A stretch of 64,000 bases of DNA from Escherichia coli (lineage in GTDB: Bacteria; Pseudomonadota; Gammaproteobacteria; Enterobacterales; Enterobacteriaceae), in NCBI RefSeq assembly GCF_003018115.1, contig NZ_CP027457.1; one strand, 5' to 3'. Within the stretch, counting starts at the first letter, position 1; each line of letters opens with the position of its first letter. The position numbers are program-made. Shown piece after piece: positions 21,201 to 24,200 of the stretch.

Positions 21201-24200
21201 TAGAAAAAAAGATATAGCTAGTGAAATAGATACTGATAAAGTGAATTTCATGCAGAAAATCTATAATAACCTTGATTGGTATAGACATTACGATGAAAAT
21301 GGGAAAATAAAAACATATCGTTCTATTAATCCAAATGGCAATAGATTTCACTTTGATTTTAATGATTTGCAATTTCTTTACTACGATCATGAGAAGACGA
21401 ATGGTCCTAAAGTGGAGGATTTTGTGAAAATGCAAAATGTTTTTTTAACGGTGAAAAACTTTAAGGCAGAAGAAAAAATAAACCAAGAGAAATATATAGA
21501 AAAACCAGCAAATGTAGCCCATGAAATTGCTTCATTCTTTGACATTGAACAATATTTATTGGAGGTCATTGATAGAAATAATAATTATATTAATGAAAAT
21601 TTCACTTATAAATTGCAAGATTTAGCCAACCTTTCTGGCGCAAGAGATGCTCAGCTAGAAAGAAAGGTTTATTTTGATATAAAGATGCTTAATTTAAATG
21701 ATAATGATGAAAAAGAAAAAGTCAAAATCGAAAATGATATAAAGAAAATAGATAAAAAAATTGAAGAAATAGATAATGCAATCTGGGATCTTTCCTCTGA
21801 AACAGAGAGATTCAAGATAAAGTTTCAACAAGAAAATAGACTTAATGATGTAATTCTAGGTATCAGTCGTTGGCTAAAAGAAAATCAAGTTATGGTGGAA
21901 ACTATTAAGAAAATTGATACTGAATAATAACGTGGCGAATAAATAAACGGATCAAGTCGTTTCTGAAACAATGAGGTTATACGAAAAGACGCTTACTCAT
22001 CAGAAATCTGGTATGCTTTAATTAAACCAGTGTCGCTGATGTGTAAGCGTTGACGTTGGGAGACGATTAAATGGTTATACCACTCCTACGTCTTTTCCAT
22101 ACGGCGTATAAGAGTGCAACATGTTGAGTTTTCCGAGTGAATGGTGCATTTTACTAACCGAGCCATTTGAATCAACCAACGCAATAAAAAAGACTGGAAT
22201 AATAAGCCTGTATTTATTATTTATCGCAATCGCACTCTACGGTTTTATCCTGCAGAAATGAGACTACTTCCAGCGGTTGTGGATTATCCCCGGGCGATAG
22301 TCATAGTCTGGTGTCAGGATTCACAAATGACCTGTTACCTGACATGGATATAAAAACAACATAGAGTGCGGTAGTTAATCTGAATCATCTATTTTTCGGC
22401 TACACAGCACAAAACAACATTATTGATTCTTTATAAGAGAGAATCTCTCCATCATTTTTATATAAATCATTATTAAGAAAATCCAGAAGCTCTTGCCTTA
22501 CACTATAAATATTGACTTTTTGGTCAACCAACGACAGTAATATATTCTTGATACCTTTTAATTTCATATTTCTATCAGATATTGTATTAAAAGTGAAGAT
22601 GATATTACGTTTATTACAACTGGAGAACCAATATTTTAGAGTGTTATTCGTCCACTTTGTTGGTGTCTTAATTAGTTGCGCTGTTGTTGTTTTTACATTG
22701 TTAAATGTAGAACCGCTAAAATTTGTCCCGACGCACGAAATGAAATTCATCTCTGAATTGTCAAAATTGCAATTCTTTATCTCACACATATCAAGGTTAA
22801 CATCATGAAATGTCGAATATTTCATGTTTGCATGTGAAAATAAACATGCAATAAATGTTATATATTGCAACCTGGCATTACAAAAAGATTTATTTTTAAA
22901 ATCAAAACAAAAGGTTTTTTTTATTTTGAAATTGTTATTATATCTGCAATGTAAAGAAATCATGTTTTTTATTAACTGATAACACCATTGTGATGATTCT
23001 GGTAATTCATAGGGATGTAAATGGATGTTTTCATCGAATATAACCTGTGAGTTATGGTTGTTTATTGAAGATATATGGAAGCTATCATTTGTTAAAGCTA
23101 TGGTTGTGCTAAAATTATAGTGGTGATCAGCGCTCATGAAATCAAATGTAACAATGTCGTTGTTTCCTTTCTTTTCTTTGTGATATGCGTTTAAAAAAGA
23201 AATATTTTCGATCTGTTCATCAGTTAATGTAAATGGCATTTCGTCATCAAAGAAAGCGTAATCGGCATTTGGGACTGGAATACTCTCAATTGAGCATAGT
23301 TTTAATAAAAAAGCATGAAAACAATGAAACTTGTTTTTATACATAAGAGAACTTAATCGCTGTTGTATCTTCTGTAGTTGTCCTTTGGGAAATAAATGCT
23401 GTAAATTTGAAAGCGAGCCATCTAAAATATATTTATATGTAAAAAGGTCCTCTCTTGGACCATTTATTAAAAAATCGTCAGACAATTTAGAAAAACGATT
23501 GAGATGACATAAATATTCCATTTGCTCCATGTCTATATAGTTATGGGGAACTGCGTGGTTTGGTGGTGTGCCAATAAGATTATCCATAAATCACCTTGAT
23601 AAAATTTAATAAAATCTCTTTATTTTAACCTCGACAATAAAAGCGGCTATAAAAAAACGCTCATTTTCTGATGCTGCGGTTAACCCGTGGAATGTACCGT
23701 TAACCCCCAAAAAAAATGCAAATCCAGGGTGAACACCCTGGGTTAAAATGGAAATAATGAGCTATTTTTTACAGTATTCACCGGTAATGTAAGTAACACT
23801 TGTTGCTAACCTAACTAGCAGTACGGTTAATTAACAACATAGAAGTTATTGTTTTTCAAACAACTCAATATTGCACGCCGGAGGGTTTATGGTTGCTAAA
23901 TTAAAACCAAGTGTTCTTATTAATACTAATCCTTTTTTAGAAGCAATGAATAAGGAGAGGCTTAGTCATAAAGGATATTCTGATAAAATTGCTTTAAGTA
24001 TTAATGATAAGAAATATAATGTAAACTCTAAGGATATTGAAAATATCCTTGATGGCAAAGGGGATTTATTTAAAAAACGTACACTGTGGGAGTTTGTTCG
24101 CGATCTTTTTCCCGGTTCTCATATTAAAGAAGTCAAAGGCTTAATTTACGAATTTGTCACGAAAGTTGATAACAAAGCCGAGGTGTTCGATAAGATTAAA

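Follow-up and report, generated by a model that had tools for sequence, protein, structure and literature searches.

The 64,000-nucleotide stretch of Escherichia coli F9792 analysed here (contig NZ_CP027457.1, a 100% match to the F9792 chromosome; the whole stretch is referred to as the window) carries an island flanked by phoU and yieH, two core genes. The gene order is pstB, phoU (ending at 19016), an espY5-type effector gene, the region that concerns us here, a pentapeptide-repeat gene, espY4, yieH and adeP. Within this island, positions 21985-22180 are a fossil island/core junction, consisting of a conserved hairpin and about 110 nt of a dead second yieH that is unannotated in RefSeq. We consider it probable that two espY–hairpin–yieH units had separate evolutionary histories before they were joined, with the hairpin acting as a 3′ RNA element and the yieH relic stemming from a functional, diverged yieH.

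A second yieH end inside the island

The hairpin occurs twice in the window. Hairpin A (GACGCTTACTCATCAG...CTGATGTGTAAGCGT; 21986-22051, + strand) has arms at 21988-22003 and 22036-22050 and an inner stem CTGGT/ACCAG, and hairpin B (26352-26418, + strand) has arms at 26354-26369 and 26403-26417. A first-pass annotation made from the sequence alone had placed the two copies at 21988-22050 and 26354-26417, and the arms are indeed identical in both; by our own count on the alignment, the interiors between the arms are ~64% identical. The 63-nt hairpin is situated about 55-60 nt after the stop codons of espY5 and espY4 alike, and both copies are collinear, with a yieH stop codon, a 16-nt spacer and the hairpin. 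Spacer A (22051-22066), which connects hairpin A to the stop codon of the relic, matches spacer B (26418-26433) at 12 of 16 positions.

From the hairpin, the similarity continues into yieH. Positions 21983-22069 align with 26349-26436 (83% over 88 nt, E 8e-20), a stretch that runs from the hairpin through the spacer into the stop region of yieH, and 22113-22160 align with 26721-26768 (85% over 48 nt, E 5e-10), a match that a repeat search extends to 22113-22170 at 81%. The first-pass annotation had proposed that hairpin A is followed by the yieH stop region and an internal yieH segment at about 80% identity, with roughly 250 bp deleted; we find 81-85% identity, and the alignment offsets (4366/4367 versus 4608) show that 241 bp are absent from copy A. 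It had also seen no similarity directly 3′ of the two paralog stops, and in agreement 21928-21982 and 26298-26348 cannot be aligned.

The relic comprises two parts on the - strand. Part 1 (22067-22099) contains the stop codon (22067-22069) and the last 10 codons, and 22070-22099 reads WKRRRSGITI* compared with WKARGWNITR* in the resident yieH. Part 2 (22100-22178) corresponds to codons ~106-131 (VDSNGSVSKMHHSLGKLNMLHSYTPYG) and is out of frame with part 1. On the - strand, 22102-22176 reads VDSNGSVSKMHHSLGKLNMLHSYTP and matches YieH residues 106-129 (blastx, 80% over 25 amino acids, E 3e-8 in a small comparison). The two parts are apparently joined at a short GGAAA-type repeat, which is present at both endpoints of the deletion in yieH. 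At 241 nt, the deletion is not divisible by 3; nothing remains of the first ~105 codons, and homology to yieH stops at about 22176-22178.

These coding matches bear on the possibility, already raised by the first-pass annotation, that the similarity is limited to the hairpin as a generic dispersed repeat, such as a repetitive extragenic palindrome (REP) or bacterial interspersed mosaic element (BIME), an enterobacterial repetitive intergenic consensus (ERIC) or a miniature inverted-repeat transposable element (MITE), and that the resemblance to yieH is incidental. A long imperfect intergenic palindrome between convergent genes is REP-like. However, the similarity extends into the yieH coding sequence at both the DNA and the protein level, the hairpin is present in at most two copies per genome and at this locus only, and its sequence is unrelated to REP. 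Rfam holds no family for it, the only match (mir-590, E 0.58) being at chance level. Copy number, the Rfam result and the coding similarity thus refute this explanation, to which we give practically no chance.

Searches across genome collections place the hairpin firmly at this locus. It is found in 1,108 of 5,426 complete E. coli genomes, in no more than two places each and never on plasmids; this count matches the ~1,090 island-bearing genomes, and the hairpin is confined to genomes with the island. About 19 of the complete genomes have one hairpin only. A scan of metagenome contigs for the exact hairpin pattern returned 46 stretches, all 46 from the phoU–yieH island locus. When species were scanned with YieH as the query (one genome per species, 80 loci, up to three errors per arm), no hairpin adjoined yieH in 79 other species. 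The sole match, L009 (JAIJJM010000384.1), is a 3.1-kb, E. coli-like contig from a ‘Collinsella sp. MAG’ that carries a 99% identical E. coli yieH and hairpin B, and it is E. coli contamination. A phage search gave no match, and the plasmid search yielded a single full match, to a 4.9-Mb record that is clearly a chromosome, together with a weak 57-nt match to a yieH on a Klebsiella plasmid.

In island-free E. whittamii, another Escherichia, Citrobacter and Salmonella, phoU and yieH are convergent neighbours with a REP element and a terminator hairpin between them. The window retains a REP-like element and this native terminator (CAGCCCGGT...ACCGGGCTG) at its left island/core junction (19028-19092), which matches island-free E. 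whittamii (L010) and gives a weak Rfam naRNA4/REP match at 19028-19088. Island DNA begins at ~19093, and the return to native sequence falls exactly on the yieH stop codon. Island-free relatives have a different terminator, still preserved next to phoU in the window, so that hairpin and spacer belong to the island and not to the native flank of yieH. The hairpin was likewise rejected as the native yieH terminator, since neither K-12-type nor island-free genomes have it, other structures being present there.

Origin of the relic and proposed joining of the two units

We compared the 19 best-preserved codons of the relic with the resident yieH. They differ by 11 nucleotides, nine of which are in third positions, and by two amino-acid changes (pS 0.77, pN 0.044). 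In 20,000 simulated runs of neutral decay, in which a copy of the resident yieH drifted to 11 differences, two or fewer amino-acid changes never occurred (0/20,000) when the relic alone changed, and occurred in 0.16% of runs (P ≤ 0.0016) when synonymous changes in the resident copy were added. As a control, the relics of the window and of the very divergent locus L137 differ by nine nucleotides, two of them in third positions, with six amino-acid changes, as expected of a neutrally drifting pseudogene. Identity of the relic to yieH is 77-85% whether the comparison is with E. albertii, Trabulsiella, Citrobacter or the resident allele. Given this third-position bias and the near-equal distance to several genera, the relic appears to derive from a functional yieH that had already diverged to synonymous saturation, with little drift since its breakage. 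The first-pass annotation had regarded the region as a degenerate duplicate of the yieH end and hairpin; the second copy is real, but it did not arise through decay of a duplicate of the resident yieH, and the hairpin part has not decayed either, as both hairpins are conserved. Descent from a K-12-type yieH allele was rejected (26 differences, versus 21 for the resident allele, in a 72-nt comparison).

The codon pattern also bears on an in-place tandem duplication in E. coli, in which a segment of espY, hairpin and the 3′ part of yieH was copied, the truncated inner yieH copy decayed neutrally, and the pentapeptide gene was later inserted at the junction. Such an event would produce direct repeats in the same order and orientation, as the two units are, it would be at ease with the lack of mobility genes, and the 10 C-terminal codons of the relic do appear decayed. 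However, the internal codons are incompatible with neutral decay from the resident allele, whereas the comparison between relics does give the neutral pattern, and yieH of other genera is at least as close to the relic as the resident allele is. Moreover, the units do not abut: between the relic and unit 2 lie 1.47 kb (22179-23644, - strand) that unit 1 lacks. The non-coding parts of the units are saturated or beyond alignment, in contrast to the slight decay of the relic. We therefore consider this duplication possible but unlikely.

A merger of two units accommodates these observations better. The units share, in order, an upstream region, espY, a flank, the hairpin, the spacer and the yieH end, and the flanks from espY to the hairpin are conserved in length but unalignable in sequence. 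Divergence of these non-coding parts far exceeds the decay of the relic, which fits poorly with a duplication that cut yieH short from the outset, and since the relic stems from a functional, diverged yieH, insertion or merger is favoured over in-place duplication and decay. Of the two origins offered by the first-pass annotation, the insertion at a yieH-proximal site is thus retained, in the form of a merger, and the simple in-place duplication is not.

In the proposed history, DNA carrying a pentapeptide gene, espY4, a hairpin and a yieH end would have recombined with a locus carrying espY5, a hairpin and yieH, and either of the two could have been the foreign partner. At one end, the crossover would have fallen within the hairpin/yieH homology, and at the other, an illegitimate join would have formed at yieH codon ~106. 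A circular fragment may have entered by a single, Campbell-type crossover, or the joining may have proceeded through homology-facilitated illegitimate recombination. Both Campbell-type insertion-duplication and homology-facilitated illegitimate recombination are general recombination mechanisms; they predict a truncated anchor copy on one side and an intact one on the other, as seen at this locus, and a non-homologous join inside the anchor gene, which the anatomy and codon pattern would place at yieH codon ~106. A later 241-bp deletion at microhomology would have shortened the relic before the island diversified in E. coli. The two hairpin copies are still a substrate for recombination, through which everything between them can be deleted.

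Several observations weigh against this history. The parts of the relic are heterogeneous, the 10 C-terminal codons being more diverged (5/10 amino acids, pN 0.39), which we attribute in part to later drift, and the codon argument is based on only 19-29 codons; these two points are its chief weaknesses. No intact relic-type yieH or donor was found among species representatives, metagenome contigs and complete E. coli genomes. A tandem duplication in which both yieH copies long stayed functional before one was truncated is a further possible variant. Finally, the island has no mobility or recombinase genes (RefSeq and NCBIfam annotation; PMC2646131), so that we purely infer the mechanism of joining.

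Another scenario is a site-specific integration of a now degraded mobile element at the yieH 3′ end, with the hairpin as the attachment core and the relic as a gene end that was either displaced or brought in by the element. It would explain why the inserted DNA is flanked by a direct repeat of a housekeeping gene 3′ end with mostly synonymous differences, and recombination between the repeats is precise, falling in an 18-nt core of identity in the hairpin arm (L135, L136 and L138 versus L137, described below). The e14 element and phage 21 integrate in icd and carry a substitute 3′ end of the gene; there, as at yieH, two 3′ ends flank the insert, one live and one a relic, with mainly synonymous differences. 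In contrast to these elements, the yieH insert has no integrase or phage genes, any crossover core would lie in the downstream hairpin, and the relic is internally deleted. No integrase, excisionase, phage or integrative and conjugative element gene lies between the repeats, which enclose the pentapeptide gene and espY4 only. The absence of phage matches, the mislabelled chromosome as the only full ‘plasmid’ match and the restriction of the hairpin to this locus also argue against mobility, and the segment between the hairpins was found at no other genomic site in the collections searched. In addition, the resident yieH has no mosaic break at codon ~106, and the hybrid form of the hairpin is most parsimoniously a rare deletion. 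Integration of a mobile element is therefore highly improbable.

The resident, live yieH (26434-27099, - strand) encodes 6-phosphogluconate phosphatase and represents an Escherichia-type allele, which is 90-92% identical to yieH of other Escherichia species and 78.8% identical to the K-12 allele. We noted a deep split between yieH alleles within E. coli, with dS 1.38 and dN 0.10 between the K-12 and window alleles (alleles compared: window 26434-27099, L003 11995-12660 and L004 11995-12660). Given the similarity of the window allele to other Escherichia species, the K-12 allele, which is linked to bgl/cbr, looks like the imported one. In strain PSJ-29, yieH is recombinant, with a break near nt 595. 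The last ~66 nt of yieH follow the island type.

Structure, age and loss of the hairpins

Hairpins A and B fold at -26 to -32 kcal/mol with z-scores of -4.4 to -6.3 on both strands, and none of 200 shuffled sequences folded as well. We further assembled 25 distinct copies of A and B from genomes and metagenomes, in which 96.9% of the base-pair cells are paired, compared with 26-43% when the partners are slid. Seven pairs vary by C↔U alone, retaining G·U on the + strand (the espY sense), no G↔A changes are present, and the L137 hairpin shows two further C→U wobble changes. This one-sided pairing evidence is weak, as it comprises few events in related sequences, and the hairpin variation offers modest evidence that a stem-loop in the espY 3′ untranslated regions is selected as RNA. 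Most likely, the espY transcripts carry the hairpin as a folded RNA element at their 3′ end, where it could act as a 3′ stabiliser or as a termination/insulation element between convergent genes. Because the espY strand lacks a U-tract, we read it as a putative stabiliser or insulator and not as a canonical terminator. Like REP/BIME-type 3′ stem-loops, it is a stable stem-loop just past the stop codons of convergent genes; it differs from these and from Rho-independent terminators in having two copies only and no U-tract on the espY strand.

A role of the hairpin as RNA also faces objections. No pair shows double-sided compensatory changes among the 25 distinct copies, neither copy is followed by a U-tract on the + strand, as a canonical intrinsic terminator would be, and the perfect identity of the arms could reflect a constraint at the DNA level or on protein binding, or local gene conversion. 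Past the hairpin, the - strand reads CUUUUC in copy A and CUAUUCCC in copy B, and a terminator scan reported neither. An integron attC site was rejected by inspection, as there is a near match to the expected R″/R′ core sites (RYYYAAC ... GTTRRRY) at one end (CTTCAAC), none at the other, and no integrase.

The CUUUUC stretch after hairpin A would suit a co-option of the relic as a small RNA of ~160 nt, transcribed from the - strand from a promoter-like site at 22175-22148 and ending at hairpin A. Promoter-like hexamers (TTGATT/TAAAAT) are present at the right edge of the relic, and the region is 96-98% conserved among lineages. This conservation is, however, no higher than that of the neighbouring DNA and core genes, the relic of L137 has drifted freely, and the variation in the hairpin favours the + strand. 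A promoter scan moreover remained below chance (19 sites versus 21.7 expected), and Rfam returned no match. We see only a very slim chance that such an RNA exists.

The relic is old relative to the island in E. coli. Six divergent island lineages, with up to 35% difference between their espY genes, share an identical architecture, the relic and its internal deletion, and a relic of the same structure is present in 1,089 of the 5,426 complete E. coli genomes as well as in the very divergent L137. Identity of the relic region among the six lineages is 96-98%, on a par with adjacent DNA and the core genes, so it is neither specially conserved nor specially decayed within E. coli. The relic thus predates the spread and diversification of the island in this species. 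The first-pass annotation had described the island as old and internally rearranged, in agreement with the deletion common to all lineages and with the composite make-up of the island.

It had also suggested a search of related phoU–yieH regions for intermediate arrangements. Besides the island-free loci described above, a protein search with EspY4 led to a rare E. coli lineage with a composite bgl+Z locus (GCA_009799345.1, GCA_016671825.1, GCA_910664965.1, ERR3329175). In this lineage, the island is located after bglGFBH-yieLK rather than after phoU, and a third full-length EspY family member, 49% identical to EspY5, is present. L137 (GCA_009799345.1) has the double form, with hairpin A, the same relic, a remnant of the pentapeptide gene, an espY4 allele and hairpin B. 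L135, L136 and L138 carry the same rare espY5 allele as L137, but have a single hybrid hairpin, with an A-type left flank and a B-type loop and spacer, that leads directly to yieH, and they lack the relic, the pentapeptide gene and espY4. As the rare lineage and the standard island share the double form with the same relic deletion, this form appears to be ancestral, and the single form would result from a precise hairpin-by-hairpin deletion within the 18-nt identity of the left arms. The L135-type loci were accordingly judged to be derived and rejected as an ancestral single unit, since L137 shares both the espY5 allele and the double structure. No hybrid-hairpin deletion forms were found among the 5,426 complete genomes.

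The hairpin and yieH end might also constitute a reusable docking site, in an integrase-free, two-slot array of effector cassettes that are gained and lost by recombination between hairpins. Cassettes of promoter motif, espY and hairpin would be captured successively next to yieH and lost by hairpin-by-hairpin recombination, and the perfectly conserved 15-16-nt arms would be kept for recombination or for a binding protein, and not only for RNA folding. We regard this reading as improbable.

The left border of the L135-type loci is unusual in its own right. At 7200-7572 of L135, and also in L136, L137 and L138, the order phoU-bglGFBH-yieLK is followed by ~50 nt of the cbrC 3′ end and a 50-nt adeP-like fragment, which is 82-84% identical, in the orientation of adeP, and directly precedes the left end of the island. 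A faint hint of a yieH fragment (HYLPGKLF, E 0.15) is seen at this border. The border is a second set of flank-gene scars at the edge of the island.

Three further contigs seemed at first to offer other arrangements. L106 (metagenome contig SKET01003558.1, region 1431-2260), from a divergent island lineage, was rejected as a relic-free ancestral form, because its espY5 is a truncated pseudogene, which makes the locus a deletion derivative. The deletion is equivalent to window ~21112-22178 and removes hairpin A and the entire relic; its right breakpoint and the right edge of the relic are only a few nucleotides apart, which may be a coincidence or mark a fragile seam. L107 and L125 were rejected as novel hairpin contexts: near the 3′ end of espY5, inside a low-complexity repeat rich in lysine, both pass into unrelated, Firmicutes-like DNA, and they are probably assembly chimeras.

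The Z-locus and its genes

The phoU–yieH interval of the window is the ‘Z-locus’ Z5211–Z5214, with espY5, the pentapeptide gene and espY4. The Z-locus (bgl/Z locus type III) was located between phoU and yieH in E. coli O157:H7 and in phylogroup D strains, where bglGFBH-yieLK-cbrCB is replaced by two paralogous open reading frames (ORFs), the present espY4 and espY5, together with a third ORF (Sankar et al. 2009, PLoS Genet, PMC2646131). K-12 carries the bglGFBH-yieLK-cbrCB island at this position. The window island agrees with that study in location, a GC content of ~30%, the lack of mobility genes and clonal inheritance (PMC2646131). In a term search of its text, the word ‘remnant’ is absent and the passages returned contain no reference to a yieH relic or the hairpin; the retained native terminator and the composite bgl+Z arrangement are not described there (PMC2646131). 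EspY4 is a translocated type III effector, and EspY5 has been termed a pseudogene in O157:H7 (PMC6313403).

Unit 1 begins with an upstream region (19198-19440, + strand) that is homologous to that of unit 2 (23645-23888, + strand), with 29 nt at 93% identity, and contains a small hairpin (CAGGGT..CCCT) and the motif AATGAGCGATTTTTTACAGTATTCA (19303-19334). It is followed by the type III secretion system (T3SS) effector gene of the espY5 type (paralog 1, Z5214-like; 19441-21927, + strand), an ORF annotated in RefSeq as ‘type III effector protein’. RefSeq presents 19420-21927 as a ‘frameshifted’ small ORF and a shorter effector coding sequence, whereas we found a single open frame from 19420 (ATG at 19441) to 21927 in the window strain and likewise in strain SWHEFF_58. 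Hence, despite its pseudogene label in O157:H7, espY5 may be intact in many strains. Unit 2 carries the T3SS effector gene espY4 (paralog 2, Z5211-like; 23889-26297, + strand). The two proteins are 32% identical over their full length.

The EspY4/EspY5 family is extremely narrow, as just 40 relatives of EspY4 (E ≤ 1e-3), with three full-length clusters only, were detected among 1.84 billion representative proteins, and all members traced are from E. coli. An initial EspY5 protein search brought up nothing but near-identical E. coli alleles and was of no help. Both espY5 and espY4 are hypervariable in their C-terminal halves (20175-21830 and 24920-26320), with a mean pairwise identity of 63-85% per 100 nt, unlike the pentapeptide gene, the relic and the flanking core genes, which are 94-99% identical among E. 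coli lineages. Diversifying selection on these effectors, or a shuffling of alleles, is suggested by this variability.

The pentapeptide-repeat protein gene (22400-23587, - strand) lies in the segment between the relic and unit 2, which also includes its leader and its 3′ flank (22179-22399), and comparison of the proteins led us to reject it as a third espY paralog. The 220 nt from the relic to its stop codon (22179-22399) have a GC content of ~0.40, compared with 0.24-0.33 elsewhere in the island; they match nothing else in the window, and no remains of yieH, adeP or phoU were detectable in 22179-22420. All three island genes have a motif, AAAATGAGCGnTTTTTTAyAG, ~60-140 nt upstream of their start codons (19303-19334 and 23754-23785 on the + strand, 23647-23667 on the - strand), which may be a common promoter or operator element. 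The third, inverted copy lies within the espY4 upstream region and faces the pentapeptide gene.

In summary, the relic and hairpin are an undescribed detail of a described locus, not surprising in kind, and they leave the general view of how such islands evolve unchanged. The feature is a fossil junction together with a conserved, probably functional stem-loop. For the classic alternative islands of E. coli (bgl versus Z5211–Z5214), it suggests a history in which an effector island was built from two yieH-adjacent units, being neither one block nor a simple in-place duplication. The unannotated yieH scar, found in ~20% of complete E. coli genomes, is a marker for island history and for tracing the donor. 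The duplicated hairpin would account for the one-step loss of espY4 and the pentapeptide gene, and it is a candidate 3′ regulatory element common to two type III effector genes.

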